Assembly (NCBI GenBank): GCA_021810905.1
Contig: JAJZQH010000003.1
Coordinates: 1,897 to 65,896 of the forward strand
From: a bacterium
GTDB taxonomy: Bacteria > UBA10199 > 2-02-FULL-44-16 > JAAZCA01
Direction: 5' to 3'
DNA length: 64,000 nt
The translations under genes were made by a program, and so were the position numbers. Below the pieces are notes generated by a model. The model was given only the letters and a program-made list of their open reading frames with translations. It did not search any database and was not told the DNA's origin. Shown here piece by piece: positions 1 through 54,300 of the stretch. Positions within the stretch are counted from its first letter, which is position 1. Every line of letters begins with the position of its first letter.

Positions 1-3000
1 AAAAGCAGGCGAAAGAGCGCCGCAAAGAGCACCATAAAGAGGCTCGAATGATTCTCCCGTGCCAGCGCCTTTAGCTTGTGCGCCACATCCTGACTGATGA
101 CAGTTCGATATTGCGCGGTTCTCCTGTCCGCGACGTCTCCTCCCTCACTATCGTGCGGCATCGAGGGGATGAAGAGTTCCGTCTTCTGTAAGGCATCCCT
201 CCAAAAGTCGATTTCAGGCTGTATCAATCTCCTGTCGCTCAGAAATCGGCGGTGCCATTCCGAATAATCACGAAACTGAAGCGAAGGAAGACCTGGCGTA
301 AAGCGCTCGCCGCCGTGTCGAGATCGCAGCATGGCCTCGATTTCGCGCTTCAGATTGTACAAGGACCACCCGTCTCCTATAATATGATTCATCGCGAAGA
401 GGAGATCCGATCCAACATCTCCGTTCTGCACCATGACCGCCCTGAAGAGCGATGGTTCCTCCAAAGCAAAAGCCGCGTCGCCTTCCTTCGCGGCGAGTGC
501 AGCAAACTCCGTCGCTACCTTCTCCCCTCTCTCGTTGGAAAGATCGACCATCCTGAAATGCAGCCGCCCGGTCTCGTGAATCCGCTGAAATACGCAGCCA
601 TCCTCCTCTTCGAACGATGTCCGCAAGCTTTCATGCCTGCGGACGATCAGGCAAAGCAACTCTTGAAGAACATCCGCCTCCACATTGTCGTCGAGATGCA
701 TGGTAAAGACCATGTTCGACGAGGCATCAGCCGGCTCCTCGCGATATCGCCGCCAGATCCTCTTCTGCGCGATGGTAGCATCATAGCGATCACAATCAGA
801 CGCAGGACGGATGATATATCGGCTTGCTCCCTCCCGCCGATTTCTCAACATTTCCGCAAGCGAGGCGATCGTCGGATGAATATAAATCGTCCTGATCCTG
901 AGATCCGCATGGAAGATGCGGTTCACGGCATTCATAACCTGCATCGCCCGCATCGAATGACCGCCGAGATCGAAGAAATCGTCATCTATACCGACTTCCT
1001 CCACACCCAGTTCGCGCTTCCAAATCTCTATCAATTGATTTTCCAATTCATCTTGCGCGCCGCGCCCGCCAGCACGCGGTCTCGTCGCCCCCTCTCGCTC
1101 TCCAGGACGGATCGGCCCTTCACATGTCAGGGCCGCATTCAATTCGCCACACTCGCCGATCCGCAGATCCGGATAATCCAGAATCTCCATGATTATCCGT
1201 TCAAAGGCCGAGACATAAGATCGGACTGTCGCCCCACTGAGTAGATTCGGGGCAAAAGCGAAGGATAAATGCAGTCCGCGCTCAACGTCATGAACGTGCA
1301 ATGCGAGCGGAAATTTCGCCGAGACGAAATCACCTTCTATTTTCTTGAATGAAGCATCCCCTATAAAGAGATGCGTAAAATCATGACTAACCTGACCGAA
1401 CATGACATCAAAGAGCTGCGCATGAGTGGATATTCCGTTCGCGTAAAGCCGGCCGACGAGATATTCAAACTGATACTCAGACCGATCATATCCTTCGAGG
1501 ATCACACCTCGCACACGGCGCATGAACTCACGCCATGTCAGATTCGAGCACATACAAAATCGCAGGGGTAACGTGTTGACGAACAGGCCGACCACTCGAT
1601 CGAACTCCGCGTTTTTACGATCCGTGAAGGGCATGCCGATGGTCACGTCCTTGCCGCCCGCAGCCCTCGAAAGGAGGACCGTCAGCGCCATCATCAATAC
1701 CATGTAGGTCGTCGCAGATTCCTCCTGTGCGAATCGCAGAAGACGCTCCGCGATACCCGAATCGAGATCGAGGGCGATGGACTCTTCTACGCAATCGAAC
1801 GATGAGAGTTGATCCCCCAGGATTGGAAGGGATTTTGTCTTCTCAATATCGCGGCATCGTTCTGACCAATATGCCTCATGCGCGTGTTTTACCGTGCTCT
1901 CGCGCAACCGCTGATGTTCCGAAAAATCTCTATATTGAAATACAGTCTCTGGGAGGATCTTTCCTCGATAGAGCGCATCCAGATCGTGAAAAAGGACGTG
2001 AGCGGACCGATCATCGAAGATGATATGATGCACGTCCATCGCGAGCACCTTCCTCCCGTCATCATATTCGACCAGGGCAAACCTCAAAAGAGGTGCCCTT
2101 TCCAGGCAAAAGGGACGGACGAACCGTTGCAGGGCACGCGTTTCACCATCGATTCGGTCGATTCGAAATGGAACAGATCGATGAATCCGCTGAAGCATGT
2201 TCCCATGCGCCACCTCGAAGGATGTCCTCAACGACTCATGGCGTTCGATCAGCGCCAGCACCGATGATTCGAGTTTCGGTACGTCGATATCGCCCAATAT
2301 CTCGTAAAAGAGAGGGATGTTATATGCGGTACTCTCCGGATGAAGTTGCTGCAGCAGGTAGAATCGGCGCTGAGACGATGACATTTCATAGCTATCGCGG
2401 GACTCGGTTCGATTGATTTCCGAAGTTGTCAAGACGCCATCGGCCGGAATTTTTCGAGCTAATTCCGCAATGCACGGATGTTCGAAGATATCGCCTATGG
2501 AAATCTCGGCGCCGAATTCGTTTCTGACGCGATCAACGATGCGAAGCGCGATCAAGGAATGCCCTCCGAGGTCGAAAAAATCATCGCGGACTCCCGCGCA
2601 TTCCATGCCGAGCTCTTGTCGCCAGATATCCGCCAGACGCAACTCAACGTCACTGCGCGGGGCCTCATATTCGTCATGAAATTCGGAGACCGCTTCCGAA
2701 AGCGCCGCACGATCCACTTTCCCGTGGATCGTGCGCGGTAACCGCGCCAATGACACAAATCTAGAGGGAACCATATAGCGCGGCAACATCTCCAGCATAT
2801 GTCGCCTAAGCTGCGTAACCCTATTATCTCCGTCAAAGACGACATAGGCCGACAGCGTTTTTTCGTCATGGACCGTTTGATTCACGACAACGACGTTTTC
2901 CTTTACCCCGCGATATGCAGCGATGCACTTCTCCACCTCTCCAAGTTCGATTCTATAACCACGCACCTTTACCTGATCATCGCGGCGGCCTATAAAATCG

Positions 3001-4181
3001 ATATCGCCCTCGGGAAGCATTCGCGCAAAATCGCCCGACCGATACATCCGCTCTCCGGGAACGAAAGGATCCGCGGAAAAGCGTTCCGCCGTCAGCCGCT
3101 CGTCATGGAGATATCCGCGTGATACCGCCGCGCCTGCAATATGGATCTCGCCCACTTGTCCGTCGGAAACTCGGAGTCCATCGTCGCCCATGAGATAGAT
3201 GCGCGTATTCGCAACAGGCTTCCCGACGGGGACATTCTCTCCGGGTTTGGGGCCGGTACGATAGCGATACGTCGTAGCGCAGATCGTCGTCTCAGTCGGA
3301 CCGTATGCATTGATGACGATCATTCGCTCATGCATGTCCTGATATCTTTTGAGGACTTCATCCCGGATCGGCTCGACGCCGACGAGAAGTTTTCGAAGTC
3401 GCAGCGTATCACGGGATCCGCTCAGAATCCTCGATACGTCGTCTATAAATCCAGGCGGAATGTACGCAAAAGTGACACCCTTCTCCCGAATCACATGGGT
3501 AAACTCCTCAACATCGTAGCATTGATCGTTCTTGAGCAGGATCAAACGCGATCCATGAAAAAGCGGGAGAAATATTTCGGCAACGCTCACGTCAAACGAG
3601 ATGCTGGCGCCGGCGAGAAAGACATCCGTTTCATCCAGGCGTCCTTCATAGACATCAGCCATGTGATGAATGAAGTTGGCGAGCTGGGCATGCTCGACCA
3701 TCACGCCCTTAGGCTTTCCCGTGGAACCGGACGTATATATGACATAAGCCAAATCGGACGGATCGGGCTGTACCTCCGGTTCCTCGATATCTCCCCGGAG
3801 GAAGAGGGAATCGTCCAGATCGATCACACGATATTCGTCGCTCCATTTCCACAAACTGCAGCTGCCGGACGTCATCACCACGCTCGATCCGCTCTCCTCC
3901 AGAATGCACTCGATACGCTTTCGCGGATTGGCGGAATCGAGCGGCAGATAGGCACCACCCGCCTTCAGGGCGGAAACCATGCCCACGATCATTTCGATCG
4001 ACCGATCGGCGACGATCCCTACGATTACATCGCGCCCGACGCCAAGCCCGCGGAGCCGATTAGCGATACGGCCCGCCCTCTTGTTCAACTCTCCATAGGT
4101 AATCCCTCGATCGCCGCACTCCACCGCTACGGCCTCGGGCCGCATCCTGCCCCACCTGCCGATAGCTTCAAACACCATCAT
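1..4181 (-). CDS. Non-ribosomal peptide synthetase, multi-module (A-T-C-T-C...), 3' end beyond window start (partial)
   Basis: Manual reverse-complement translation, in codon phase with the + shadow ORFs 252..1244 and 3141..4451. Gives canonical motifs: A3 core LAYVIYTSGSTGKPKG (revcomp of ~3719-3763), NAYGPTET, GERMYRSGDFARMLPEGDIDFIGRRDDQVKVRGYRIELGEVE (~2930-3050), LPRTIHGKVDRAAL (~2700). Two PCP motifs DDFFDLGGHS (Ser codons ~2550 and ~952). Two C-domain His motifs MDVHHIIFDD (~2000-2030) and MNHIIGDGWS (~370-395). No in-phase TTA/CTA/TCA codons seen on + strand between 3 and 4214, so the - frame is open to position 1. Absent from ORF track because its stop lies outside the window. ATGATG start at 4181 overlaps the agmatinase stop (ATGA). 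Confidence 0.8.
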   Translation of the reverse strand, partial: MMVFEAIGRWGRMRPEAVAVECGDRGITYGELNKRAGRIANRLRGLGVGRDVIVGIVADRSIEMIVGMVSALKAGGAYLPLDSANPRKRIECILEESGSSVVMTSGSCSLWKWSDEYRVIDLDDSLFLRGDIEEPEVQPDPSDLAYVIYTSGSTGKPKGVMVEHAQLANFIHHMADVYEGRLDETDVFLAGASISFDVSVAEIFLPLFHGSRLILLKNDQCYDVEEFTHVIREKGVTFAYIPPGFIDDVSRILSGSRDTLRLRKLLVGVEPIRDEVLKRYQDMHERMIVINAYGPTETTICATTYRYRTGPKPGENVPVGKPVANTRIYLMGDDGLRVSDGQVGEIHIAGAAVSRGYLHDERLTAERFSADPFVPGERMYRSGDFARMLPEGDIDFIGRRDDQVKVRGYRIELGEVEKCIAAYRGVKENVVVVNQTVHDEKTLSAYVVFDGDNRVTQLRRHMLEMLPRYMVPSRFVSLARLPRTIHGKVDRAALSEAVSEFHDEYEAPRSDVELRLADIWRQELGMECAGVRDDFFDLGGHSLIALRIVDRVRNEFGAEISIGDIFEHPCIAELARKIPADGVLTTSEINRTESRDSYEMSSSQRRFYLLQQLHPESTAYNIPLFYEILGDIDVPKLESSVLALIERHESLRTSFEVAHGNMLQRIHRSVPFRIDRIDGETRALQRFVRPFCLERAPLLRFALVEYDDGRKVLAMDVHHIIFDDRSAHVLFHDLDALYRGKILPETVFQYRDFSEHQRLRESTVKHAHEAYWSERCRDIEKTKSLPILGDQLSSFDCVEESIALDLDSGIAERLLRFAQEESATTYMVLMMALTVLLSRAAGGKDVTIGMPFTDRKNAEFDRVVGLFVNTLPLRFCMCSNLTWREFMRRVRGVILEGYDRSEYQFEYLVGRLYANGISTHAQLFDVMFGQVSHDFTHLFIGDASFKKIEGDFVSAKFPLALHVHDVERGLHLSFAFAPNLLSGATVRSYVSAFERIIMEILDYPDLRIGECGELNAALTCEGPIRPGEREGATRPRAGGRGAQDELENQLIEIWKRELGVEEVGIDDDFFDLGGHSMRAMQVMNAVNRIFHADLRIRTIYIHPTIASLAEMLRNRREGASRYIIRPASDCDRYDATIAQKRIWRRYREEPADASSNMVFTMHLDDNVEADVLQELLCLIVRRHESLRTSFEEEDGCVFQRIHETGRLHFRMVDLSNERGEKVATEFAALAAKEGDAAFALEEPSLFRAVMVQNGDVGSDLLFAMNHIIGDGWSLYNLKREIEAMLRSRHGGERFTPGLPSLQFRDYSEWHRRFLSDRRLIQPEIDFWRDALQKTELFIPSMPHDSEGGDVADRRTAQYRTVISQDVAHKLKALARENHSSLFMVLFAALFRLL

Positions 4182-5113
4182 AATGCGCCGCCCTTCGTGA
4201 CAGAAGTCTTCCCCTCACGATGCACGTTTGCAAAGATTTCGCCGATGATACCGAGGACTGAAGCGATGGTGATGTTGGAGACATCCAACGATGGGGCGAA
4301 TTCCACGATATCGAAGGCGCGCACTGAAATCGGAAGCGACTCGATCATCTTGAGGAGCACGCTTACCGGGATTCCGGCGGCCACGGGCGTTCCCGTTCCC
4401 GGAGCACAGGATGGATCGAGCACATCCACGTCGACCGACACATACAGATGATCGACACGGCGGGAGATATCTTCAACGCCTCGTCGAAATCGCTCCAGCG
4501 CACCAGTATCGAAGAGAAGTTCGTCTGAGGGCAGCTCGTGAATGCCCGTCCGCTTGATATACGGCATCTCCTCCTGTTCATACGCGCGCGTTCCCACCAG
4601 GAGGCAGTCGGTCGGCCTGATCTCCGTCGTTTCAATCGCGCGACGCAGCGCCGATCCATGTGAGAAAGAAAAACCATGATACGTATCGAGTAGATCGGGA
4701 TGCGCGTCGAACCAGATAACACCCGTCCTCCCTCGCTTCGCCACAGCCTTGAGGATAGGATGGGTAACGGAGTGATCGCCCCCTATGGACACAAGCGTTG
4801 AATCCGTCCCGTCAAGGACGGCGGAACAGCTGCATTCTATGGCGTCGAATGTCTTCATCGCATCGAAGGTGGAAACGTCAACATCTCCAATGTCGAGGAT
4901 CCGTATTGACGACAGGTCATCGCCGCGACGGGATGTCGATTTCAACCTCCCAGTCATGGATCGCACTCGCCCGGGCGCAAAAGCGGCGCCACGCTGGCCG
5001 CCGGCTCCTCCGTCGAATGGTATCCCGAGGATGAGCACGTCGGCATCGCCAGGGGAATTCGCTTTTGTCCCCACTCCGTTCCATGCGCCATATCCTTCGG
5101 ATTTTAAAAACAT
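4178..5113 (-). CDS. Agmatinase/arginase-family ureohydrolase
   Basis: ORF 4178..5206 trimmed to ATG at 5113 preceded by GGAGGAATGTT. Ureohydrolase motifs SIGGDHSVTHP, WFDAHPDLL, VSVDVDVLDPSCAPGTGTP. Confidence 0.85.
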   Translation of the reverse strand: MFLKSEGYGAWNGVGTKANSPGDADVLILGIPFDGGAGGQRGAAFAPGRVRSMTGRLKSTSRRGDDLSSIRILDIGDVDVSTFDAMKTFDAIECSCSAVLDGTDSTLVSIGGDHSVTHPILKAVAKRGRTGVIWFDAHPDLLDTYHGFSFSHGSALRRAIETTEIRPTDCLLVGTRAYEQEEMPYIKRTGIHELPSDELLFDTGALERFRRGVEDISRRVDHLYVSVDVDVLDPSCAPGTGTPVAAGIPVSVLLKMIESLPISVRAFDIVEFAPSLDVSNITIASVLGIIGEIFANVHREGKTSVTKGGAL

Positions 5114-5238: not shown

Positions 5239-5823
5239 CTAGGGAATCGGCACAACGTTGAACTGGAACTGGGTCCCATCGACGATCTTCCGTTCAATGC
5301 TGTCAAGATCGCTCACGACTGCACAATAAGACGCCAGCCAATCAAGCGCCCTCTGTTTGTCGCTGTCACGGGTGGAGACCACTCCGTCGGACGGTACGAT
5401 CACATGATAGCCCCGGAAATAAGCATCCGCCGCCGTCGTTTGCACACATATCTGCGTCTGCATACCTGTGATGACGATGGTATCGACACCCAGCACCTTA
5501 AGACGTTCGTCGAGTTTCGTCTCGAAGAACCCGCTATCCTTATTCTTCTCAACGATGATATCACGATCATCGAGGTAGTCCTGTGCTATCATTGCGCCCT
5601 TTGTACCGCGCAGGACGGGCAACACGCCGTTATGAAGCTCCGCGTGGTTGTCGTCCTCGTCATAGATCAGCTGAAGATGGACGATTGGAATATTCATCTC
5701 GCGCATTTTTTTGAGAAAGCGGATCATCGAAGGAGCGAATCGCTCGACCTGCTTGCGGCGCTCTTCATTCTTGTTAATGAGGTCATACTGCAGATCGTTG
5801 GTTAAAATTGCATATCGCGCCAT
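5239..5823 (-). CDS. Isochorismatase-family (cysteine) hydrolase
   Basis: ORF 5239..5895 trimmed to MARYAILTND start (ATG 5823, GGGGAG SD 7 nt upstream). Catalytic-Cys region VITGMQTQICVQTTA typical of the isochorismatase family. Confidence 0.75.
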   Translation of the reverse strand: MARYAILTNDLQYDLINKNEERRKQVERFAPSMIRFLKKMREMNIPIVHLQLIYDEDDNHAELHNGVLPVLRGTKGAMIAQDYLDDRDIIVEKNKDSGFFETKLDERLKVLGVDTIVITGMQTQICVQTTAADAYFRGYHVIVPSDGVVSTRDSDKQRALDWLASYCAVVSDLDSIERKIVDGTQFQFNVVPIP

Positions 5824-5878: not shown

Positions 5879-7294
5879 TCAGATGGACCGACCAATATTC
5901 CTCTTCATCATTGTTGAAAATCGCGAAAGTCCATCCTTCCAGATTTCGAAAATCTCCTGCTCGTCGAGATATTCTGTTCTGGTCACGGATGGCTGATCTT
6001 CTCGCCAGCTGTCAAAGTTTTCGCCAATAATCGTCAAATGATAGCGTTCGAAATTATGGTAGAGGTCGGTCCCCGGATAAGGCGTCGTGATATAGTACTC
6101 CACGATATCCGCGAGCCCCTCTTCGAGCAGCTTTTCGGCATAGGCGATCGTCCGGTAGGCGGTATCCCTCGATTCGCCAGGCAGCCCAACCATCCAGTAA
6201 AGGAGGACATTCAGCCCGGCATCCTTGGCCATTTTACAGGATGCTCTGATCTGCTCGACTCGAATTCCCTTCCGGATGAGATCGAGTAATTCCTGGTTCG
6301 CACTCTCCGCGCCGTACTTGATGAGCCGGCAATTGCCCTCATGCATCTTTCGGAGGATTCGGGGGGTCACAAGATCGCAACGCGTCTGAGCGATCCATCG
6401 AAAACCCCGGTTCCGCATCTCCATTCCAAACTCCTCCACATAGGAGGGATTCGTCGTGAATGATTCATCGCCGACATAAAGCAGATCTATGTCAAAATAT
6501 TTTCGTAGAAGTTCCGCCTGCGTTACGGTTCGCTCCATACTCTGATACAACGGTTTTCTCCCCTTCCAGATCGTGTCCGCACAATACGCACAGTTATAGG
6601 TACAGCCCCTCGACGTATAGATCCGGGCGAAAGGAATCTGACCGCGATAGATGTCGTTCGGTATGAGATGATATGCCGGCATAGGGAGACGATCGGATAT
6701 GATCGCTTCCTTGCTGAATGGATTTACATTGATCTCACCATCACGTTTCCACGAGATTCCCGGGATACCTCTAAGATCTCCGCCATCATGGAGGCACCGT
6801 AATAGATCTGGCAGGATGAATTCGCCCTCCCCTCTCACAACGATATCGATATCCTCCTCTTCCAGGCATGAGCGATCCGTATAGGACACATGTGGTCCGC
6901 CAAGAACAACGAAGACATCTCGGCCCAGCACTTTTTTGACCAATCGGGAAACGCGAACGGCAACGCTGAAACTATTGGTAAAAGGCGACATGCCAACCAC
7001 ACGAGATGTGACCTGGCTGAGTTCCCTCGCAATGGCATCATAGTCGATGTCGCATCCGGAATAAGATGTGAGATCCAGGACATCTGCGGTCAAGCCTTCG
7101 TGCTCAAGGGTTCCCCCCAACGCGGCAATCCAAAGCGGGAGCTCCTTGATGTCGTAGATCGGGGCTTTTACGAATTTTCCACCGATTCTCCGTTCAAAGA
7201 AATCCCAGTAGACATCATAAAACGCGCTCTCCTCTTTATGAATGAACGGTTTCGCGATCAGCGGAAGCTGGATAAACGTAAAATCACTGTTCAT
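5879..7294 (-). CDS. B12-binding-domain radical SAM protein (class B rSAM, putative methyltransferase)
   Basis: 471 aa. CxxxCxxC cluster motif in YTSRGCTYNCAYCAD about 230 aa in, preceded by an N-terminal Rossmann-like (cobalamin-binding type) domain. ATG at 7294 overlaps hypF stop (ATGA). Confidence 0.8.
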   Translation of the reverse strand: MNSDFTFIQLPLIAKPFIHKEESAFYDVYWDFFERRIGGKFVKAPIYDIKELPLWIAALGGTLEHEGLTADVLDLTSYSGCDIDYDAIARELSQVTSRVVGMSPFTNSFSVAVRVSRLVKKVLGRDVFVVLGGPHVSYTDRSCLEEEDIDIVVRGEGEFILPDLLRCLHDGGDLRGIPGISWKRDGEINVNPFSKEAIISDRLPMPAYHLIPNDIYRGQIPFARIYTSRGCTYNCAYCADTIWKGRKPLYQSMERTVTQAELLRKYFDIDLLYVGDESFTTNPSYVEEFGMEMRNRGFRWIAQTRCDLVTPRILRKMHEGNCRLIKYGAESANQELLDLIRKGIRVEQIRASCKMAKDAGLNVLLYWMVGLPGESRDTAYRTIAYAEKLLEEGLADIVEYYITTPYPGTDLYHNFERYHLTIIGENFDSWREDQPSVTRTEYLDEQEIFEIWKDGLSRFSTMMKRNIGRSI

Positions 7295-9630
7295 GATATT
7301 TCCTCGTCTCCAATCGATGAGCGGCCAAACTGGAGACCCGCGATGATCGCCTGTCCAAGCGACACACCGCCGTCATTGCTCGGAACCCTCGAATGCCTAT
7401 AAACGGAGAACCCGTCGTGCGTGAGAGAGCGGTAACAATGCGAGAGAAGAAATTCATTCATGAAGACACCGCCGCTCAAGACGACCTTCGCAAGCCCATG
7501 CGTGAGCCGGATGCGATGACAAACGTCTCTGACAATATCTACGATCGTTTGATGAAAACGACGGCTGATAACGCCAAGCGAGATGCCACCTCGCACGAGG
7601 AGATCCACGATCTCACGAATCATCGGCCGCATATCAATCATCCCAGAGGATGTTGATTCCATGAAGTCATAAGAGAACGATGTAAATTCATCCTCTCCGT
7701 CCGCCATGATGTATTCGAGTGCCATGGCCGCATGCCCTTCATGGGAAATTGACTCGATCACGCCGATAAGCGCGGAAACAGCATCAAACAAGCGGCCCAT
7801 GCTCGACGTTTGTGGAGAATTGATCCCTTGTTTCGCCATACGCAGAAGGAGATCCAGTTCGTCGCCCTGTCGTTCTCGGATAATCGGCAGGGGGAGTTCA
7901 CGAAGCACGTGCTCATCGTAGATCTGTGAAAGAATACCTATCGCCGTTCTATAGGGATGCTGCACAGCTTTATCTCCACCCGGAAGCGGAAAAGGCCGCA
8001 GGCAGGCAAAACGCTGAAATTGTTCATAACCTCCGACAAGGAACTCACCGCCCCAGATGCTGCCATCGGCGCCGTATCCGGCTCCATCGAAGATGACGCC
8101 GATCACGTCCTCATCCAGGCCATGCTCGCACATACATGAAGCCATATGGGCATGATGATGTTGAACCCTGACCACAGGAAGATGTTCCATTTCCTCGGCA
8201 TAGGCGCTCGTCAGAAAATCCGGATGGAGATCGCATGCTACAAGCTCAGGCGCAATATCATAGCTCGCCCTGATATGATCGATGATCTCACGGAGGAACC
8301 GGTAGATATATTGATTATTGATATTTCCTATATGTTGACTGACGAACATCCTCCTGTCCTTTGTCAGGCATATCGTGTTCTTCAGATCTGCACCGAGCGC
8401 CAACACGGAAGGAAGGGTACGATGGCACATGATCGGATGGGGGGCATATCCGCGCGCTCGGCGGAGTATCTCAACATGATGGCCATCCCCATTCGAGCCC
8501 ATACATCTGACGATCGAATCGTCGATTCTGATATGGATATTGCGGTCATGCGAAAGAAAAAAATCTGCGACGTCTTCGAGCTTCGTCAAGGCATCGTCGT
8601 CATCGCTGATGATCGGCTCATCAACCGCATTGCCGCTTGTGGCCACAAGTGCCGGAAAATGACCCCGGAGCAAGAGATAATGAAGGGGTGTGGAAGCAAG
8701 CATGACTCCGTAGCGACGGTTATCCGGGGCTACAGCCTGGCAAATGAGATCGTTCTTCTTCTTTCGGAGCAAAACGATGGGACGTTGTGGGGAAGCAAGC
8801 AACTGCCGTTCATCCTCCGAAACATGCGCAAAACAACGTACCTTGTCGATTTCGTCGGACATCATCGCAAAAGGCTTGAGGCTGCGCCGCTTCCTCCTGC
8901 GCAACTCGTTGACGGCGTCTTCCTGCGACGGATCAACCATTAAATGATAGCCGCCTAGCCCCTTGACGGCGATAATTAACCCTTGCCGCAGAAAATTCAC
9001 GGTTTCAAGGATGGGATCGCGGGTATCTACCGGCTCGCCATCTCGCCGCTTGAGAAAGAGCTGCGGTCCGCACTTCCAGCACGCATTGGGCTCTGCGTGA
9101 AATCGTCGATCCGACATATCCTCATATTCATCCATGCATTCCTCGCACATCCGGAACACATGCATCGTCGTATTGCACCGATCGTAGGGAATGTCCTTGA
9201 TGATGGAGTATCGAGGCCCACAATTCGTGCAGTTGATGAAAGGGTAACGATGCCGCCGGTCGGCGGGGTCGAAGAGTTCAGACAAACACTCGGAACAGAT
9301 GCTGGCGTCGGGAGAGATGAGTGTTTCGCGTGAGGCATCTTGCCTGCTCTCCAGGATGCGAAACTCCTTATGGAGGCCAGTCGCCTTTTCGACTGAGATG
9401 AGCTTGATCTCATCAACGACGGCCATGGACGGCGCATCGAATTTGAGCTCCTGAATGAATTTCGCGCTTTCCTCCTGCGGCCCTTCAATTTCGACAACCA
9501 CGCCCCGTGAATTGTTGAGGACCCATCCGCGAAGATCGTATTTCTTGGCGACGCGATAGACAAAGGGCCTGAATCCTACTCCCTGTACGATCCCGCTGAT
9601 CAGATATCGGCGCACTTCAAACATGGCCAT
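7291..9630 (-). CDS. hypF: Carbamoyltransferase HypF (acylphosphatase + two Zn fingers + YrdC + Kae1-like domains)
   Basis: 779 aa. N-terminal acylphosphatase motif VQGVGFRPFVYRVA. Two CxxC-x18-CxxC zinc fingers (CSECL...CTNCGPRYS and CEECMDE...CWKCGPQL). YrdC-like and Kae1/HypF C-terminal regions. GGAGG SD upstream of ATG 9630. Confidence 0.85.
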   Translation of the reverse strand: MAMFEVRRYLISGIVQGVGFRPFVYRVAKKYDLRGWVLNNSRGVVVEIEGPQEESAKFIQELKFDAPSMAVVDEIKLISVEKATGLHKEFRILESRQDASRETLISPDASICSECLSELFDPADRRHRYPFINCTNCGPRYSIIKDIPYDRCNTTMHVFRMCEECMDEYEDMSDRRFHAEPNACWKCGPQLFLKRRDGEPVDTRDPILETVNFLRQGLIIAVKGLGGYHLMVDPSQEDAVNELRRRKRRSLKPFAMMSDEIDKVRCFAHVSEDERQLLASPQRPIVLLRKKKNDLICQAVAPDNRRYGVMLASTPLHYLLLRGHFPALVATSGNAVDEPIISDDDDALTKLEDVADFFLSHDRNIHIRIDDSIVRCMGSNGDGHHVEILRRARGYAPHPIMCHRTLPSVLALGADLKNTICLTKDRRMFVSQHIGNINNQYIYRFLREIIDHIRASYDIAPELVACDLHPDFLTSAYAEEMEHLPVVRVQHHHAHMASCMCEHGLDEDVIGVIFDGAGYGADGSIWGGEFLVGGYEQFQRFACLRPFPLPGGDKAVQHPYRTAIGILSQIYDEHVLRELPLPIIRERQGDELDLLLRMAKQGINSPQTSSMGRLFDAVSALIGVIESISHEGHAAMALEYIMADGEDEFTSFSYDFMESTSSGMIDMRPMIREIVDLLVRGGISLGVISRRFHQTIVDIVRDVCHRIRLTHGLAKVVLSGGVFMNEFLLSHCYRSLTHDGFSVYRHSRVPSNDGGVSLGQAIIAGLQFGRSSIGDEEIS

Positions 9631-9652: not shown

Positions 9653-10675
9653 TCAGCATAGTCTCGGAAGTTCAGCCCCCTGCAGCAACTGGACGATTTT
9701 TTCCTCCCCGCCTTCGCCGCACATCACGACGTGGCAATCATCACATTCTAACACTTTACCGATGACCGATGCGTGTTCCCCATATCGATGCCGACGGAGC
9801 GTTTCGACAATCCCCTTGCTCGCTCCGGAGGAAGCGAAGATGCAGACATTCCCTTCATTGGCGAGGTAGAGAGGATTTACGCCCAGCATGTCCGCGGCCA
9901 TAACGGTCTCATGCAGGATGGGAAGCCGCACCTGTTCGATGCGCACGCCGAACCCCCCTAGCTGCGAGATCTCGTTTAAGAGCGTTCCCAACCCGCCACG
10001 CGTGATATCGCGCATGCAATGAATACGATTCCCAAACTCTTTCAGCACACCCGCAATCATATCGTTGAGTGGAGCGCAGTCGCTTTGAATCCGCCGTTCG
10101 AACCCCAACCCTTCACGAATTGAAAGTATATGGATGCTGTGATTGCCGAGCTGTCCGGAGATGATGACATCGTCGCCTGGCCGAATGGACGATATCGAAA
10201 GATGTATATCATTAGGCTGAAAAATACCGATGCCGGATGTGTTGATAAAAATCTTGTCGACCTCGCCGCGTTTGACGACCTTCGTATCCCCGGCAACGAT
10301 ATACACTTCCGCCTCCAGTGCCGCGTCACGGATGGAATGCAGGATCTGTTCGAAATCCGAAAGCGGGAAGCCCTCCTCCAGGACGAAGGCGAGCGTCAGG
10401 TACAGCGGCTTGGCGCCGCTAACAGCCAGGTCGTTCACCGTGCCGCAAACGGCGAGCTTACCAATATTCCCGCCGTGAAAAAAAATCGGATCCAGAACAA
10501 AAGAATCGGTGGTGATAGCAATGCGATCGGCCTTCCACTCGAGTACGGTGCTGTCCTCCATCTGGCCTCGGTGGGTCTCACCGAGGCATCGCACGATGAC
10601 ATCTCTGATGAGATCCCCACTCAACTTGCCACCGGTTCCGTGATCGAGCACAATGCGATCTGACAGATAATTCAT
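9653..10675 (-). CDS. hypE: Hydrogenase maturation protein HypE (PurM-like carbamoyl dehydratase)
   Basis: N-terminal VLDHGTGGKLS. PurM-like fold. C-terminus ends ...GAELPRLC with the conserved terminal Cys that carries the thiocyanate in HypE. Track ORF begins at TTG 10693; ATG at 10675 preferred. Confidence 0.85.
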   Translation of the reverse strand: MNYLSDRIVLDHGTGGKLSGDLIRDVIVRCLGETHRGQMEDSTVLEWKADRIAITTDSFVLDPIFFHGGNIGKLAVCGTVNDLAVSGAKPLYLTLAFVLEEGFPLSDFEQILHSIRDAALEAEVYIVAGDTKVVKRGEVDKIFINTSGIGIFQPNDIHLSISSIRPGDDVIISGQLGNHSIHILSIREGLGFERRIQSDCAPLNDMIAGVLKEFGNRIHCMRDITRGGLGTLLNEISQLGGFGVRIEQVRLPILHETVMAADMLGVNPLYLANEGNVCIFASSGASKGIVETLRRHRYGEHASVIGKVLECDDCHVVMCGEGGEEKIVQLLQGAELPRLC

Positions 10676-10867: not shown

Positions 10868-10913
10868 ACCGCGCTCAAAAATGAGAGAACGGGAGGGGAC
10901 GTCCCGTTCTCTC
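10868..10913 (-). terminator. Rho-independent terminator hairpin (12-bp stem GAGAGAACGGGA/TCCCGTTCTCTC, 7-nt loop) followed by U-run on - strand
   Basis: Perfect inverted repeat 10883-10894/10902-10913. A-run 10876-10880 on + strand gives a U-tract downstream on the - strand. Lies 3' of small ORF 10935..11228 and upstream of hypE. Confidence 0.5.
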
Positions 10914-10934
10914 AGGTTGAACTGCTTCGAAAAC

Positions 10935-11228
10935 CTATGCCTCTTTAGGCGATCTGTGATAGCGATTCTTACGCTTGCCATCGCGTTGATTGAGCTCATG
11001 ATATATGAAAGTGGACAACGTCTTGATGACTCTCTCTTCCAGGGGGAGGAGATTCTCTCGCGCCAGCTCTCTCTTCCACCTCTTCGATATGCCGCGAAGA
11101 AAGAGGACGATGCGCTCCACCGTGCGGCCGTCCAGGTGTCCGATGCGGACGTCGGCCTTCTGAATCCTGTTATGGTCAAATCTCAGAGGCCTGAAATCAG
11201 CATTCAAGCGCTTCAAGAACGCCTGCAT
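10935..11228 (-). CDS. Hypothetical small protein (97 aa)
   Basis: ORF between lysE-like gene and hypE on same strand. No recognisable motif. Followed by terminator hairpin. Confidence 0.3.
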   Translation of the reverse strand: MQAFLKRLNADFRPLRFDHNRIQKADVRIGHLDGRTVERIVLFLRGISKRWKRELARENLLPLEERVIKTLSTFIYHELNQRDGKRKNRYHRSPKEA

Positions 11229-11300: not shown

Positions 11301-11939
11301 CTATCGGAAATAGGATGCGATCAACGAGGCTGCGATGAAGGCCATGATGCACCCGATGATGATATCCAGCCACCTCCATACGACGGCTCTCTTCAAGATG
11401 GAAGAGAGAAGGTGCGAGAAGAGCGCCAACGCGGAAAACCAGAGGAGTTCCGCCAGAAAAATGCCGAGGAGAAAGAAGGGCCTTTGAGGGAGAGATAATT
11501 GCCCGCCGACGCTGCCGATCAGGACGATGTTGTCCAACAGCGCATGCGGATTTAACCAGGAGAAGGCGAGAGTCGAGGCGACGATCTTTCCCAACGTAGG
11601 ACCGTTCGGCATGCCTCCGTTTGCGTTGAGGACTTTCGGTCTGATCGCCGACTTGAAGGAGAGGAATCCGTAATACAGGAGAAACAGGGCTCCTCCCCAA
11701 AGGGCGACGTTTTTCACCGTGGGCGAACGGGAAATGAAGAACCCCACGCCGTAGACCCCGGCCACGGCGAGGGAGACGTTCAGGATGATCGAGAGGGCGG
11801 CGATCGTCAGGACGTGTTGACGTTGCAGCCCCTGCCGCAGGACGAACGCATTCTGCGCGCCGATGGCAACGATGAGGCCGAGATTGAGGGCCAGTCCCTG
11901 GGAGAGAGGAGTGAGCGAGCAATCCATCAAGTTCATCAT
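11301..11939 (-). CDS. LysE/ArgO-family amino-acid exporter
   Basis: 212 aa. Six predicted TM helices. LysE-type translocator signature region LNLGLIVAIGAQNAFVLRQGL. Confidence 0.8.
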   Translation of the reverse strand: MMNLMDCSLTPLSQGLALNLGLIVAIGAQNAFVLRQGLQRQHVLTIAALSIILNVSLAVAGVYGVGFFISRSPTVKNVALWGGALFLLYYGFLSFKSAIRPKVLNANGGMPNGPTLGKIVASTLAFSWLNPHALLDNIVLIGSVGGQLSLPQRPFFLLGIFLAELLWFSALALFSHLLSSILKRAVVWRWLDIIIGCIMAFIAASLIASYFR

Positions 11940-11996
11940 AAGCGTATTTTCGAATTTTTCAATATCCGTTCCTTATGGTTCTACTACAATGAATCC

Positions 11997-12872
11997 ATGA
12001 GATACCTCTACGTGATTCTTCTGTTCGCTTTTCTGGTGGCTCCGCTCGCGTCCTGCGGTTCGAGTACGACAACGGTTTTTGATTTGAGAATGGCGCAGAC
12101 GCTGCAGCAATCGCTGGATCGCTCGGTGAGCGAGCTCAACATCCCGGGCGCGGTCATGGCGGTACGCGCGCCCGACGGGTCGATCTGGTCCGGCGCCAGC
12201 GGCTACGCAACGCTCCCCAACTCTGCTCAACCTTCCGGCGTGCGCATGACGACCGACATGCACCTGCGCATTGCCAGCATGATCAAGTCTTTCACTGCCA
12301 CGATGATCCTCCAGCTCGTGGACGAGGGGAAGCTCACGCTCGACGAGACGCTGGATCAGGTCATGGCGCAGTGGTTCGCGCCCGGCGTCATCGACTTCGC
12401 GATACCCTACAGCGACGCCATCACGATCAGGCACCTGCTCGAGATGCGCAGCGGCATGCCGAATTATTCCAATACGCCGGCCTTCTTAGCCCTGCTCGCG
12501 CAGCAGCCGCCGCAGCCGGTGGAAGCGAAGGAGCTCATCCGCATGAGCGTGCAGAGCGCCAATCCTGCTCCATATCCGCCGGACACTCGTATGGAATACT
12601 GCAACACCAACTACATCGTGCTCGGGATGATCGTCGAACAGGTCACGGGCAACCCCTACGCCGTTGAATGGCATCGTCGTCATCACCAACGGCGAACGGG
12701 GCGCACATCCAGAAGCCGGCCGTCACCCCGCACGCTCGATCTTCTGGAACGCGGTCCGGGACGCGGGCATTTATTTGCCATGAGAGCGCATGCGCCTGCT
12801 CAGCATTTTGAGCGAGCGCTTCAATTCGTCGCTGATCTCAACCGGATGAAGACCTGCTTCATTCCCGGATAG
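11997..12872 (+). CDS. Serine hydrolase, beta-lactamase/DD-peptidase-like lipoprotein (possible C-terminal frameshift)
   Basis: Track ORF 11814..12872 trimmed to ATG 11997 (MRYLYVILLFAFLVAPLASCGSS, lipobox LASC). SxxK motif SMIKSF. YxN motif YCNTNY. C-terminal 60 aa are R-rich and atypical. Confidence 0.6.
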   Translation: MRYLYVILLFAFLVAPLASCGSSTTTVFDLRMAQTLQQSLDRSVSELNIPGAVMAVRAPDGSIWSGASGYATLPNSAQPSGVRMTTDMHLRIASMIKSFTATMILQLVDEGKLTLDETLDQVMAQWFAPGVIDFAIPYSDAITIRHLLEMRSGMPNYSNTPAFLALLAQQPPQPVEAKELIRMSVQSANPAPYPPDTRMEYCNTNYIVLGMIVEQVTGNPYAVEWHRRHHQRRTGRTSRSRPSPRTLDLLERGPGRGHLFAMRAHAPAQHFERALQFVADLNRMKTCFIPG

Positions 12873-13805
12873 AGCACCTTGGAGGGCGAGAGCTTCATGC
12901 GCGCGCTGCCCGCGTAATCAACGAGCTTATATGCCATGTCCAGATGCGGGGCATCCGCGGACGTTGAAAACTTCGTGCCCACTCCGAATCCGTCGATCGG
13001 CGCGCCGCGGTCGAGCAATCTTTTGATCTCATATTCGTCGAGGCTGCTGGAGGCGAAGATCTTCACGTTTCTGAGGCCAGCGGCGTCAAGCCGTTCCCTC
13101 GCCGCCTTGGAGAGCGAGAGCAGATTGCCGGAGTCGAGCCGGATGGCATTGATGCGGAAACGTCGTCCGAGCCTTCGGCTCAGTTCGACCACCTTTTCCA
13201 CGCCGCCAATTGTGTCGTAGGTATCGACCAGGATCGTAGAGCCTGGATAGAGACGCGCGAATCGCTCAAAGGCTTCCAGTTCATCGTCGTGCGCCTGGAT
13301 GTAGCTGTGAGCCATGGTCCCGAAGAGCGGAATGCCGAAGATTTTTGACGCGAGCACGTTCGATGTACCGGCGAAACCAGCGAGATAGCCGCTCCTGGCG
13401 GCAAGCAACCCCGCCTCAATTCCGTGCGCGCGCCTCGATCCGAAATCTACGACCGCTCTGCCCAAAGCCGCGCGGACGATGCGCGAGGCCTTTGTGGCGA
13501 TCGCGCTCTGAAAATGGATCTGGTTATGGTGGCGCCGAGGATGAGATGGACCTCAAATCCTTCGCGCAGGCCGTCGAGAACGGTCTCGAATACGCAGACC
13601 TCGAGCACCAGCCCGCAGACCCATAGCCGAGCGACGCCAGCCTTGCGCAGATCAGCGGCGAGAGGGCATCACGTAAAAGCGGAATATTCCTCAATATCGC
13701 TCGCAGCGGCCTTGAGGAGGATCGTGGCGTCGTCAGGGAGATCGACGATGATGAGCGCGTCCGATGTGGCGTGAGTTCTGGAATGAGCCGAGTCATAAAG
13801 TTCAA
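12821..13805 (-). pseudogene. pncB: Nicotinate phosphoribosyltransferase (NAPRT, pncB-like) disrupted by frameshift
   Basis: C-terminal part ORF 12821..13465 has NAPRT motifs VVDFGSRRAHG and GTMAHSY. N-terminal continuation NQIHFQSAIATKASRIVRAAL is in the same frame but cut by TGA near 13540. Upstream NAPRT-like sequence continues in another frame. One missing A in the run around 13512-13516 would restore GATI-NQIHFQ. Confidence 0.55.
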
Positions 13806-16385: not shown

Positions 16386-17618
16386 TCAGCATCCGACCGG
16401 ACATCCGCATACTCCCGGCACGCTCGTGCCTGGCACACTCGTGTCGGGCGGGCATTGCGAATTCGAGGTACAGACCCCGCCAGTGTCGCAGTAGCAGGTA
16501 CAGTCTGTTCCGCCGGTGTTGCCTCCTGTATTGCCGCCGCCCGTGTTTCCGCCTCCACTGCCCGTGGATGCGGGGCATGCCCCCCAGGTGCAACCTGTAC
16601 CGCACTGTTTTGTGCCATCAGGATAGCAGGGCATGTACGAGCCCGGCGTGCACTGATAATCGTTCGGGCACGTGGGAAGTATTGCACCAGGACTGACGAC
16701 GCCGCTCTGTTGTAACGAGCCTGGTGAGATGTAAGTGTTTGCCATAGTGACGAGCCCGCTGCCGTCGTTCATGACCTGGACGGCGCTGTCGAGCGTGTTG
16801 CTGGATACATCAAGCGCCGCGCTCACGCAGGACCCCGCATCTCCGAGCGTGCATTTAAAGACGTCGACTCCCGTAAGAATGCTTCCGGCGTCCCCGAGAT
16901 TTTCGAGCCACGTCTCGTCGCCCATCACCACAGTTGCAGTCGTCACGATGACGCCGGCGCACGGAAGCGCCATTGCGCCGAGGGAGACTGTCGTGGCTAC
17001 ACCGCAGGCGCCTACGGAAATGCCCAGCCCCGCAAACTTGAGCAGCTCCGCGAGGTTTTTGACGTCGGAGTCGCAGGCCGGGAAGCAGGTCGACTTGGTT
17101 GAAGCCGAACTGCTGCTGACGGCACTGGCGCCACCGGCGCCGGTAATTAAGTTCGAGGCTTCCGCGGGAACGCTAACCCTCCTGAACACTTCTACGTAAT
17201 CTGTCGGAACGTAGATCTTCGCGATATCGACCGTCCCCGCGCTCAGGTCCCAGTTGGAGAAGAGAAGGATGAAGTCGCCCATGACCGTCCTGTAAGGCAG
17301 CCCGTCGGCGCCAAAGAAAACCGCCACATTGCCGCCCGTGGCGTTGGTCCAGAGTGCGCCCACAATCTTCTCGGTGGTTCCGCTGGAACCGGGAATCGCA
17401 TTGCTCACCAGCGGGAGGAGCATCTCGCCGTCTTTGTTCACCATAATCGCGCCGAGCGAATCTTTGCTCTGCATCACGGCCGCGACCTCGGGCGTATTTT
17501 CGTTGCTGCCGCTCGTACTCCCAGCGCTCCCGCTTCCGCTCGTTCCGCTGCCTACCGATATGCATGAAACGACAGACGGAAGAAAGCAGAGCATCATCAT
17601 AACCAGTATTTTTCTCAT
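16386..17618 (-). CDS. Cys-rich secreted lipoprotein, unknown function (paralog of 52619..53983)
   Basis: Lipobox LPSVVSC. Gly/Ser/Thr-rich linker. C-terminal Cys-rich GGNTGG repeats. Shares near-identical core KSTCFPACDSD(V/A)KNLAELLKFAGLGISVGACGVATTVSLGAMALPCAGV with 52619..53983. Confidence 0.6.
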   Translation of the reverse strand: MRKILVMMMLCFLPSVVSCISVGSGTSGSGSAGSTSGSNENTPEVAAVMQSKDSLGAIMVNKDGEMLLPLVSNAIPGSSGTTEKIVGALWTNATGGNVAVFFGADGLPYRTVMGDFILLFSNWDLSAGTVDIAKIYVPTDYVEVFRRVSVPAEASNLITGAGGASAVSSSSASTKSTCFPACDSDVKNLAELLKFAGLGISVGACGVATTVSLGAMALPCAGVIVTTATVVMGDETWLENLGDAGSILTGVDVFKCTLGDAGSCVSAALDVSSNTLDSAVQVMNDGSGLVTMANTYISPGSLQQSGVVSPGAILPTCPNDYQCTPGSYMPCYPDGTKQCGTGCTWGACPASTGSGGGNTGGGNTGGNTGGTDCTCYCDTGGVCTSNSQCPPDTSVPGTSVPGVCGCPVGC

Positions 17619-17712
17619 AATCCCTCCTGCACGTTATGCGGCGCCAGATAGCTCATGTCGCAACCATTGTCTAGGTCTGCTTTCAACGGAATCGCAAAAA
17701 AAACGGCCCAAA

Positions 17713-19077
17713 CTATCTCTGCTTCGCGAACATCACCGGCACCTGTATGCCGCCGCCGCTCACGTTCACCTTGAAGCCGCGGTTGGTGGCGCGCGTGATG
17801 AATCCGCCCACGTTGAAGTTGGTGAAGCGCGCACCGTCCCAGTCGTAGTGGACGTAGACGCCGACGTCTGCAATCACGCGCCTGGGTCTGGAGAGAAAAC
17901 CTGCCACGTCAATCGTATTGAGATCGATGCGATCCTGGAGAACCCAGTACTTGTGATCTTTATGAAGTATGCGCGCGAGCCGCGCTGGAATTTTTTTCCC
18001 AACAAATACGTGCTCGCCTCCCATGCCATCAGCGTACTTGAGCACGAGCCTTGAAGGACGATGGAGCGCTTCTTCTTCGTTGCCTCTCAACAATCTCGCA
18101 GGAACGATCGTATCCGCGAGCCTCTCCGCGCGCGCCTCGCCTATGAGGCGCCTGAGAATATTTTTATCCTCGAGCACGGTGAGGATCGTCTTTGGCGCTA
18201 CGAGTCCAGTGATGAACGGACTGTAGTGAGGTGTCTCGGACCGCACGAGGTCGCGGAAGAATCCCGGGGCCTCTTTCAAATCTTTGAGTTCGAAGCTGTA
18301 CGAGAGCTGGAATGCATCCGGAGGCCTTGTATTTGCTCCGATCTGCAGCTTGCCATCCCTGAGACGGACGCATTCGCGCGAGAGGAGTTTGCAATCTTCA
18401 TCGAGCTTCACCTTGAAGGCGGATGGAGAGACGAGCCGCATGTCGAGTCCGATCGCGCGCGCCTTTTTAAGGATCACCTCCTCTTCCCAGTTGTACAGCT
18501 CGTACTGGAAGCGCACGAAACGCCTGCCGAGCCTTCGCATGTTGCGCACTTCGCTCGCGGCGGTATCGAGGCATATCACCTCGCGCCTAAGTATCGGAAA
18601 GAGCTTGAGGATCGTCTCTTGAATGAACGACGAGCGGCCGGTTCCGTCGAAGCCGATATCGTTCACCTCCATGAGCTTCGGCGGATTATCGGGACTGGGC
18701 TTTCCCACCACCGCCATATCGAATCGCAGGCTGCCGATGATGCGCCGCTTTCTGTGCTTGAGCACGCCGAGCTCGCGGATCATATACTCCGAGATAGGCG
18801 TTGGCGGCAGGAGTTCCCTGATCTCGTCGGAAGGCAGCGAGAGAATCCGCATGAGCGATTCGGTGATATCGCGACACGTGCGCCTTATGACCGGAAGATA
18901 CGACGCGGGAAGGATGCGCGGGAGCGCGGAACAATCGTGATCGTTGATGCCGATGAGCCCGGAATCCGCGAACTCGTTCCACAGCTCGGCCTTGAGAGCT
19001 CTGAGGTCGCGCTCCCTGAAGAGCCTCGCGAGCTTCGATGGAAGGGCCTCGTGAAAATGACGGTGTCTTGGAAACAT
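17713..19077 (-). CDS. Hypothetical protein, possibly circularly permuted ATP-grasp superfamily
   Basis: 454 aa. VLKYADGMGGEHVFVGKKI resembles the ATP-grasp glycine-rich loop. No other firm motif. Confidence 0.4.
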   Translation of the reverse strand: MFPRHRHFHEALPSKLARLFRERDLRALKAELWNEFADSGLIGINDHDCSALPRILPASYLPVIRRTCRDITESLMRILSLPSDEIRELLPPTPISEYMIRELGVLKHRKRRIIGSLRFDMAVVGKPSPDNPPKLMEVNDIGFDGTGRSSFIQETILKLFPILRREVICLDTAASEVRNMRRLGRRFVRFQYELYNWEEEVILKKARAIGLDMRLVSPSAFKVKLDEDCKLLSRECVRLRDGKLQIGANTRPPDAFQLSYSFELKDLKEAPGFFRDLVRSETPHYSPFITGLVAPKTILTVLEDKNILRRLIGEARAERLADTIVPARLLRGNEEEALHRPSRLVLKYADGMGGEHVFVGKKIPARLARILHKDHKYWVLQDRIDLNTIDVAGFLSRPRRVIADVGVYVHYDWDGARFTNFNVGGFITRATNRGFKVNVSGGGIQVPVMFAKQR

Positions 19078-19174
19078 GGTGCAACGTATATCTCAACGGC
19101 GGAAATTTTTCACGGATTATCATAATATCAAAACGGGGCGAGTCACCAAGGTCATCCGCCGAGCGATTGCCTCG

Positions 19175-21808: not shown

Positions 21809-21882
21809 GCCTCCCCTTATACGACGCCGCGGAGATATTCAACTACCCATTAAAAATTTCCCGTGCGACCGGTAGGAATTTT

Positions 21883-23010: not shown

Positions 23011-23031
23011 TTGCGGGAGTTCAATGAGATG

Positions 23032-23152
23032 GTTCCCCGCAGCTTGCTGCGGGGTTTCCGCCACCATCTCCCTTGAGGGGAGAGGGAAGGGTGAGGGTGA
23101 TCGTCGATGTTGCCGGTGATACCCCGCGGCTTGCCGCGGGGAGCATTCATTT
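23032..23152 (-). repeat. MITE-like ~130-bp repeat element, inverted copy
   Basis: Reverse complement of the element at 46753..46900, 52425..52554 and 55829..55958. Hairpins CCCCGCAGCTTGCTGCGGGG, CTCCCTTGAGGGGAGAG, CCCCGCGGCTTGCCGCGGGG. Confidence 0.75.
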
Positions 23153-23485
23153 TCCGGAGCCGACTGTTCGCGATCGCGCGTGACTGGCAGTCGCGGAGTA
23201 ACCGGCCCAGGCGCGCCACGATATTGATCGCCAACCGCCACATATTCCGACGCCACGTCATTCAGGCATATACCCTGACGGGAATCGGGCAGCGGTATAA
23301 TATCATCGTCGCAGACCACGAACACTTCCTCTGCACCGGATTCCTCTGCAGGCAGCCCGTCTGCCGCGGCCATTACATCGAGATTTAACGGTTTTACGGT
23401 CATATATCTCCTGCCCTGACGACATGGACGTTATCGCAGAATTCCTGAAAAAGTTGCTCGATATTCGCACCCAAATCCGACACTT

Positions 23486-23625
23486 GAATTATCACTCAAA
23501 TCCTCCCTCCCTTGATGGGAGGGAGTTTGAGGGAGGGTGACCATGAAGACTTTCGTCACCCAAGGAATGAGTACCACCCTCTCCCTAACCCTCTCCCATC
23601 AAGGGAGAGGGAATTTTTTGTGTCG
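23486..23625. repeat. Degenerate/variant copy of the stem-loop repeat family
   Basis: Two hairpins CTCCCTCCCTTGATGGGAGGGAG and CCCTCTCCCATCAAGGGAGAGGG, related to the central CTCCCCTCAAGGGAGAG hairpin of the main element. Confidence 0.5.
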
Positions 23626-23695
23626 GATTTCAGCGCAAAAAAACCCGCAACTTCTTCCCGGCTGCAGCCGATACACGCCGTAATCGAGGAATTCA

Positions 23696-33244: not shown

Positions 33245-33341
33245 ACGGCATTGTTATCGACCGAACCGCAAAATGGTTGCGATGTTTTTTAATGTCCTCT
33301 AGGAAAGATGCTTCTCGAAACCAGTCGAAGGAGAGACTCAC

Positions 33342-33770: not shown

Positions 33771-33806
33771 CGTGAGGATGGTTCGTATTCAAAAGCTTGC
33801 AGTCCC

Positions 33807-54299: not shown

Positions 54300-54300
54300 T

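Follow-up and report, generated by a model that had tools for sequence, protein, structure and literature searches.

A hypE/hypF operon ending in an A-T-C-T-C nonribosomal peptide synthetase without a second adenylation domain

A six-gene operon with hypE and hypF

A nonribosomal peptide synthetase (NRPS) gene and the five genes in front of it lie at the start of a 64,000-nt stretch of bacterial DNA (contig JAJZQH010000003.1 of assembly GCA_021810905.1, positions 1,897 to 65,896), which is called the window here. The NRPS gene is the last of six minus-strand genes, which encode, in order, HypE, HypF, a B12-binding radical S-adenosylmethionine protein (rSAM), the isochorismatase-like hydrolase IsoA, an arginase-family ureohydrolase, and the NRPS, with gaps of 22, −4, 55, 125, and −4 nt between them. 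A terminator-like hairpin marks the 5' limit of this operon and ends the preceding unit of a LysE-type exporter gene and a 97-aa open reading frame (ORF).

10882..10914 (3268-3300 in locus L001), minus strand: strong terminator-like hairpin with a 13-bp stem and a T run
9653..10675, minus strand: HypE with a C-terminal ELPRLC (TIGR02124, 421 bits against a cut-off of 252)
7291..9630, minus strand: HypF carbamoyltransferase, all four parts present (TIGR00143, 798 bits against a cut-off of 466)
5879..7294, minus strand: B12-binding rSAM, 471 aa, with a 4-nt overlap between its start and the hypF stop (Pfam B12-binding and Radical_SAM)
5239..5823, minus strand: isochorismatase-like cysteine hydrolase IsoA, catalytic Cys retained in GMQTQICVQTT (Pfam Isochorismatase)
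4178..5113, minus strand: arginase-family ureohydrolase, 311 aa in the public record (Pfam Arginase, E 4e-64)
1..4181, minus strand: NRPS, first 1393 of 1560 codons, A-T-C-T-C (open frame, Pfam, and the identical full-length protein P0001)

The four parts of HypF are Acylphosphatase, zf-HYPF, Sua5_yciO_yrdC, and HypF_C. The CxxxCxxC motif of the rSAM could be placed at C231/C235/C238 from the invariant columns of an alignment of its orthologs, and every NCBIfam match of this protein stays below its cut-off. IsoA gives weak matches to RutB and BiuH, and its PDB matches are N-carbamoylsarcosine amidase-related proteins—suggesting a weak resemblance to ureido hydrolases. An EntB-like isochorismatase as part of a siderophore pathway was considered and rejected because of this resemblance, and because EntC-, EntA-, or EntE-type genes do not accompany the hydrolase.

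The arginase-family frame is open up to 5206, but the resulting 342-aa version has no exact record and the public call is 311 aa. The protein scores 162 bits against the agmatinase model, which is under the cut-off of 174, and among solved structures it comes closest to proclavaminate amidinohydrolase, guanidinopropionase, and guanidinobutyrase. These three enzymes liberate an amine from a guanidino group. The NRPS gene starts with ATGATG, and the first of these ATGs shares the sequence ATGA with the TGA stop of the arginase-family gene. Hence, the two genes appear to be translationally coupled.

The LysE-type exporter (11301-11939) and the 97-aa ORF without Pfam match (10935-11228) are located on the minus strand just 5' of hypE. 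The exporter appears to belong to a separate transcription unit, and it could export the product of the operon, a role that the MFS transporter might have in locus L006. Neither the window nor the hypE leader gave any riboswitch or other Rfam match.

Extent of the synthetase gene

On the reverse strand, 1393 stop-free codons run from base 4181 to window base 1, with 56 and 62 stops in the remaining two reverse frames over this region. The computed chance of such a run is ~9e-30. A first-pass annotation, made from the window sequence, had described a frame open from the ATGATG at 4181 off the window start with its stop outside, and direct translation agrees: no in-phase reverse stop was overlooked between 1 and 4181, and the stop codon sits 502 nt past window base 1. 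That only antisense shadow ORFs are listed for this region was likewise correct (plus strand, 252-1244, 3141-4451, and others), since the program that made the list drops ORFs running off the source.

The identical full-length protein P0001 (1560 aa; contig DAHVYM010000026.1, assembly GCA_027327785.1) describes what follows beyond the window. Further modules and a thioesterase (TE) domain had been expected there; instead, the additional 167 residues merely finish the last condensation domain, the protein ends a few residues later, and small unrelated genes follow. Neither further modules nor a TE or reductase (R) domain could be found in the full-length NRPS or its neighboring genes. An NCBIfam search agrees with the assignment as NRPS.

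The genes on the 3' side of the NRPS gene (L001 14917-16401, past window base 1) encode an HTH_17 (excisionase-like) protein and a 23S_rRNA_IVP four-helix protein, after which the contig ends. The GC content of the operon region, 0.53-0.545, is slightly lower than the 0.56-0.63 of most of the window. With the small genes past the NRPS, this gives a hint that the region may be an island that is mobile or was acquired horizontally.

Domain structure of the synthetase

The order adenylation (A), carrier (T), condensation (C), T, C with an A-less second module, as proposed in the first-pass annotation, is real: it is found by Pfam and in the full-length sequence. The AMP-binding (residues 10-358, E 7e-81), AMP-binding_C (residues 415-488), PP-binding (two stretches), and Condensation (two stretches, E 9e-118) families are all detected. 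The enzyme thereby departs from the canonical layout, in which each elongation module bears one A domain and a TE or R domain provides the release.

2718..4154, minus strand: A domain, residues 10-488 (Pfam AMP-binding and AMP-binding_C; TIGR01733)
2454..2639, minus strand: carrier T1, residues 515-576, GGHS serine at 539-542 (Pfam PP-binding)
1149..2399, minus strand: condensation domain C1, residues 595-1011, LCL-like (Pfam Condensation; 2JGP as best solved relative)
1050..1148, minus strand: C1-T2 linker, 33 residues, Gly/Arg/Pro-rich (sequence; comparison with an A-T-C-A-T-C relative)
855..1049, minus strand: carrier T2, approximately residues 1045-1109, GGHS serine at 1073-1076 (Pfam PP-binding; tblastn with T1)
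3..794, minus strand: terminal condensation domain C2, in-window residues 1130-1393 of 1130-1560 (Pfam; full sequence; orthology to the relative in locus L006)

The A domain matches TIGR01733 with 402 bits against a cut-off of 317. Its Stachelhaus code, read from an alignment with GrsA-PheA, is DVAYLGAICK; D235 and K517 are in place, and the known GrsA code, DAWTIAAICK, is reproduced by the same alignment. This specificity check, suggested by the first-pass annotation, yields a hydrophobic code. As the A codes carry no acidic pocket residue, a basic or guanidino compound would not be the substrate.

C1 bears the active-site motif HHIIFDD (residues 718-724, window 2010-2030) and C2 the motif NHIIGDGWS (residues 1265-1273, window 363-389), both as read in the first-pass annotation. 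Both motifs retain the Asp and the second His. The replacement of the first His by Asn in C2 is found in 1 of ~356 comparable motifs from 239 homologs.

The A-less second module had been taken to imply either loading in trans or a first C domain that is in fact of the E (epimerization) or X type. Only the former is still to be weighed. An E- or X-type identity was rejected: C1 scores 215 bits against the TycC PCP-C structure 2JGP and 78 bits against the glycopeptide X-domain 4TX2 (88 bits against CmnI), it carries the LCL-like or C-type motifs SSSQRRFYLL, RHESLRTSF, and VGLFVNTLPLR, and the carrier in front of it has GGHSL rather than the GGDSI that is typical ahead of E domains. These motifs and scores identify C1 as a regular condensation domain of the LCL type.

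C2 is diverged but still LCL-like, and its best matches among solved structures are Txo2, Txo1, and TycC (100-121 bits). VibH is not among its structural matches. Together with domains of L006, P0121, and P0122, it falls in a small clade of C domains that are terminal or stand alone and that share NMTTF and (E)(Y/F)xNGIE. When T2-C2 is considered on its own, P0122 and P0123 are its closest relatives; they come from small, unrelated NRPS loci that do not have the five upstream genes. Beside those of the NRPS, the window encodes no A, T, or C domain, also as judged by tblastn with T1; nor is there a second A domain in the 1.7 kb past the NRPS gene, the rest of the genome not having been searched for a stand-alone A.

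A domain order like this might also be a sign of decay. The NRPS would then be a remnant, inactivated by the loss of its second A domain—an A domain that a relative possesses and that is gone here—and the rare HHxxxDD of C1 would fit such a loss of function. However, 1560 codons are open, all core motifs are intact (the A3 motif, the lysine of A10, the GGHS serine of either carrier, and the second His and the Asp of both C motifs), the 33-residue linker between C1 and T2 is clean, and a C-T-C arrangement without A is found in at least five of the best 150 library matches. We consider decay very improbable, and the NRPS is a complete and probably functional bimodular A-T-C-T-C enzyme.

Comparison with an A-T-C-A-T-C relative

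The NRPS of locus L006 has the order A1-T1-C1-A2-T2-C2. The A domain of the window resembles A2 of this relative (369 bits, 38% identity) more than A1 (259 bits), and the codes of the latter two are DAMFIGAICK for A2 and DLFILGCVFK for A1. C1 matches C1 with 168 bits and the other C domain with 97 bits; C2 matches C2 with 291 bits (35% identity) and the other one with 97 bits. Both terminal C domains have the rare NHxxxDGWS and GYFVDPVIVR as well as NMTTF and EYANGIE in common, which indicates orthology. The usual site of a second A domain is occupied by the 33-residue C1-T2 linker, in which sequence comparison finds no A-domain remnant. Hence, the NRPS of the window looks like the enzyme of the relative with a single A2-type A domain at the front and none in module 2.

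Collinear C-T-C arrangements without A are present in at least five of the best 150 matches from a 1.84-billion-protein library (P0381, P0424, P0434, P0501, and P0515). In a search of representatives with C1-T2-C2, giant NRPSs dominate the best 150 matches. The A-less layout thus seems uncommon but recurrent.

This leaves the question of how T2 is loaded. T1 and T2 are 45% identical, and either is 28-38% identical to any carrier of L006; the two being mutually closest is weakly in line with their service by one A domain. Alternatively, an A domain or A-T shuttle encoded elsewhere could load T2 in trans, and the product would be a heterodipeptide. Bacterial A-less modules served in trans are documented for CmnI (PMC12400406) and WS9326A (PMC7539972), and the two unlike A codes of the L006 NRPS would allow for a heterodipeptide as the ancestral product. 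On the other side, the only A domain within 64 kb upstream and 1.7 kb downstream is that of the NRPS itself, its two carriers are each other's closest relatives, and the operon is compact and self-contained. The trans loading put forward in the first-pass annotation is hence possible but in our view doubtful, and loading of both carriers by the single A domain is at least as likely.

The hypEF cassette in other loci

The five genes upstream of the NRPS gene are found together again, in varied gene orders, at no fewer than five further distinct loci. Identities to the proteins of the window are 54-55% for HypE, 45-49% for HypF, 57-58% for the rSAM, 55-58% for IsoA, and 41-42% for the arginase-family protein. 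Orthologs of the rSAM at 57-60% identity have the same partner genes each time. A second, shorter isochorismatase-like gene, isoB, is part of each of these loci.

L004, Heliomicrobium gestii: arginase-isoB-HypE-HypF-rSAM-IsoA-ATP-grasp (isoB at 6088-6552)
L006-8, clostridial-looking contigs: HypF-HypE-isoB-arginase, divergent from A-T-C-A-T-C NRPS (2102 aa)-rSAM-IsoA-MFS transporter (isoB at 2051-2548 in L006)
L009, Logan assembly contig from run SRR33388178: cassette with methyltransferase and glycosyltransferases (isoB at 6010-6513)
L175, sediment-metagenome contig: cassette alone (isoB at 2786-3256)
L177, Logan assembly contig: cassette alone (isoB at 3652-4182)

In the window, isoB was not found—making it the only cassette locus without this gene. 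The catalytic Cys is replaced by Ser, Phe, or Met in IsoB and retained in IsoA, and IsoB may be a non-catalytic partner. The C-terminal ELPRLC is present in all six cassette HypEs.

A tblastn screen of 174 loci returned the cassette solely in the loci already identified. A scan of genome contigs with the rSAM alignment was dominated by generic patterns, gave only relatives of 26-35% identity, and missed even H. gestii; a scan of metagenome contigs with the terminal-C alignment was swamped by the generic RHESLRTxF pattern.

A conventional explanation would be that hypE and hypF are ordinary [NiFe]-hydrogenase maturation genes beside an unrelated NRPS. Both proteins score far over their equivalog cut-offs, and HypE keeps the cysteine of its PRxC motif. 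Nevertheless, no HypA-D or hydrogenase Pfam family is encoded in L004, L006-8, L009, L175, L177, or the 64-kb window (these stretches only); the five-gene set repeats in at least five other loci and never adjoins such genes. Moreover, 4-nt overlaps link hypF to the rSAM gene and the arginase-family gene to the NRPS gene, and a 2020 genome-mining study observed hypE and hypF with an ATP-grasp gene and no other hyp genes (PMC7794033). The conventional explanation is thereby largely refuted, and hypEF, the rSAM gene, and the hydrolase genes form a conserved cassette without adjoining hydrogenase genes. The remark of that study is the sole mention of such a gene set that we found in the literature, and a characterization of the cassette was not among what we found.

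A carbamoylation of the orphan T2 by HypF was also considered. It was rejected, as the NRPS of the relative has one A domain per T domain and two cassette loci have no NRPS at all.

In locus L011 (10001-17551), a more distant relative of the rSAM (41% identity) is encoded beside a further B12-rSAM. An arginase-family gene, a GNAT acetyltransferase gene, and a fusion of AdoMet decarboxylase and spermine synthase are also present there. The locus resembles a cluster for the modification of polyamines, which may point to polyamine- or agmatine-like substrates for this rSAM family.

A possible route to the product

From the domain order and the gene neighborhood, we propose a scheme whose chances of being right or wrong we hold to be about equal. 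The single A domain would aminoacylate both T1 and T2 with the same hydrophobic amino acid, in the manner of SidD, and C1 would couple the two residues to a homodipeptidyl-S-T2. As C2 is not followed by a carrier domain, it would release the dipeptide onto a free nucleophile—here onto a free amine, forming an amide. The likeliest amine would be unmasked by the arginase-family enzyme from a guanidino precursor, itself tailored by the rSAM and by carbamoyl-to-cyano chemistry of HypF and HypE. An amine from the cassette is the most plausible acceptor because the ureohydrolase gene is coupled to the NRPS gene and because the partners of the cassette elsewhere are other decorating ligases. In other lineages, the cassette product might be used alone or be coupled by the A-T-C-A-T-C NRPS, the ATP-grasp ligase, or glycosyltransferases.

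Several points weigh against this scheme. The exchange of Gly for Asp in the HHxxxDG motif of C1 is found in just 1 of the ~356 comparable motifs and could weaken catalysis. The role of C2 as an amine-accepting domain is suggested by its position—no downstream carrier, with the catalytic His intact—and by context, its sequence not being near VibH; terminal C domains are also able to cyclize or esterify. For T2, the sequence by itself is compatible with an A domain in cis or in trans. Finally, only two cassette instances bear an NRPS, and we infer the joining of NRPS product and cassette product from co-transcription, with the cassette free of any ligase in two loci.

Cyclization by the terminal C domain, as known from fungal CT domains, leads to a further possibility: a SidD-like iterative enzyme, which would produce a diketopiperazine or cyclic oligomer without any amine from the cassette, the cassette acting otherwise. 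The domain order equals that of SidD/Nps6 less the degenerate A domain, and the cassette does occur without an NRPS. However, the A code is hydrophobic and thus unlike those for hydroxamate building blocks, and the arginase-family gene is coupled translationally to the NRPS gene. The presence of C2 clade members in unrelated small NRPS contexts bears weakly on this question, as it fits either mode of release. Altogether, we deem a SidD-like cyclization improbable.

For the cassette itself, isoB included, a new pathway can be put forward as a speculation that we hold to be less likely than not. HypF and HypE would form a protein-bound thiocyanate from carbamoyl phosphate, as they do in hydrogenase maturation, but an organic substrate rather than iron would receive the CN or carbamoyl unit. 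This might happen by a radical cyanation, in which CN would be transferred via the cobalamin of the tightly coupled rSAM. The result might be a nitrile-, cyanamide-, or guanidine-type amine, to be decorated by the terminal C domain, an ATP-grasp ligase, or glycosyltransferases.

Other features of the window

The remaining genes of the window are of housekeeping type: kdp, pst/phoU, phoBR-like, alkaline phosphatase, porin, and a Cus-like resistance-nodulation-division (RND) system. The porin and the RND and outer-membrane efflux (OEP) genes suggest a diderm bacterium. No tRNAs were detected in the window. A 323-aa protein (39403-40374, minus strand) matches the thaumatin family (E 6e-15), which is mostly eukaryotic. 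Nine ORFs of 410-615 aa have no Pfam match at E <= 1e-5 (16386-25210, 31766-35507, 48162-50009, and 52619-55677), and an 877-aa ORF (19175-21808) shows a C-terminal sigma-70 region 4 only; known protein families seem to cover this genome poorly.

A NAPRTase-family ORF of 214 aa (12821-13465, minus strand) covers positions 3-192 of the 239 of its Pfam model (E 5e-9), partly overlaps the opposite-strand beta-lactamase-family ORF at 11814-12872, and may be truncated or miscalled. At the far end of the window (61500-64000), the GC content falls from ~0.63 to 0.39-0.52 past the outer-membrane efflux gene. This part contains short overlapping ORFs only, gives no tRNA or Rfam match, and may be intergenic or a foreign segment.

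Significance

A-less modules and terminal C domains are already known. What is new here is a bacterial, vestige-free A-T-C-T-C enzyme with rare active-site variants. Together with the relative that retains the second A domain, it makes up a natural pair for the study of the loading of two carriers by one A domain and of release by a terminal C domain. The HypEF cassette, a context that the first-pass annotation does not mention, is the most unusual feature and the more interesting part, as it points to a so far unexplored way of making metabolites from cyano or carbamoyl units; if true, this would be the first use of the cyanide machinery of hydrogenases in the synthesis of a small-molecule natural product. 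The six-gene operon, put at ~15 kb, is compact enough for direct heterologous expression.

Comparison with known systems

The fungal enzymes SidD and Nps6 (A-T-C-dA-T-C, where dA is a degenerate A domain) and the A-less T-C modules of SidC are loaded by an upstream A domain, in the former case one A for both carriers (PMC8162485). The NRPS of the window has the same order as SidD/Nps6, likewise ends in a C domain, and has no working A domain in module 2. In contrast to the degenerate A vestige of the fungal enzymes, it bears only a 33-residue linker, and the fungal enzymes use a hydroxamate amino acid, form ester bonds, and cyclo-oligomerize. Homology between the two is apparent only in generic NRPS domains.

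The C-T modules of CmnI and WS9326A are bacterial and A-less like module 2 of the window; CmnI of the capreomycin pathway is loaded by the A domain of another module (PMC12400406). In these systems, the A domain resides on a separate protein, whereas the only candidate A domain of the window is located in cis, one module upstream. For the release, Kj12C—the terminal C domain of rhabdopeptide synthetases—transfers the peptide to a free amine (PMC6195595). C2 of the window is, like Kj12C and VibH, a C domain without a downstream carrier, and no close sequence relation of C2 to them was found.

For HypE and HypF, the only role known to us is the synthesis of the cyanide ligands of [NiFe]-hydrogenases. 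The cassette proteins match the family models of these two end to end, and HypE has a C-terminal PRLC in place of the canonical PRIC. In the hydrogenase system, the known chemistry proceeds from carbamoyl phosphate via S-carbamoyl-HypE to HypE-thiocyanate (PMC12130793). There, HypE and HypF work with the HypC/HypD scaffold, HypA/B, and a hydrogenase; none of these is nearby in the cassette loci, which instead provide B12-rSAM, isochorismatase-like, and arginase-family partners. A further parallel is a decRiPPter candidate cluster of Streptomyces, in which hypE and hypF homologs and an ATP-grasp ligase occur with no other hyp genes and for which a new function was suggested (PMC7794033). That paper mentions the cluster without characterizing it; an ATP-grasp ligase is also encoded in the cassette locus of Heliomicrobium gestii.

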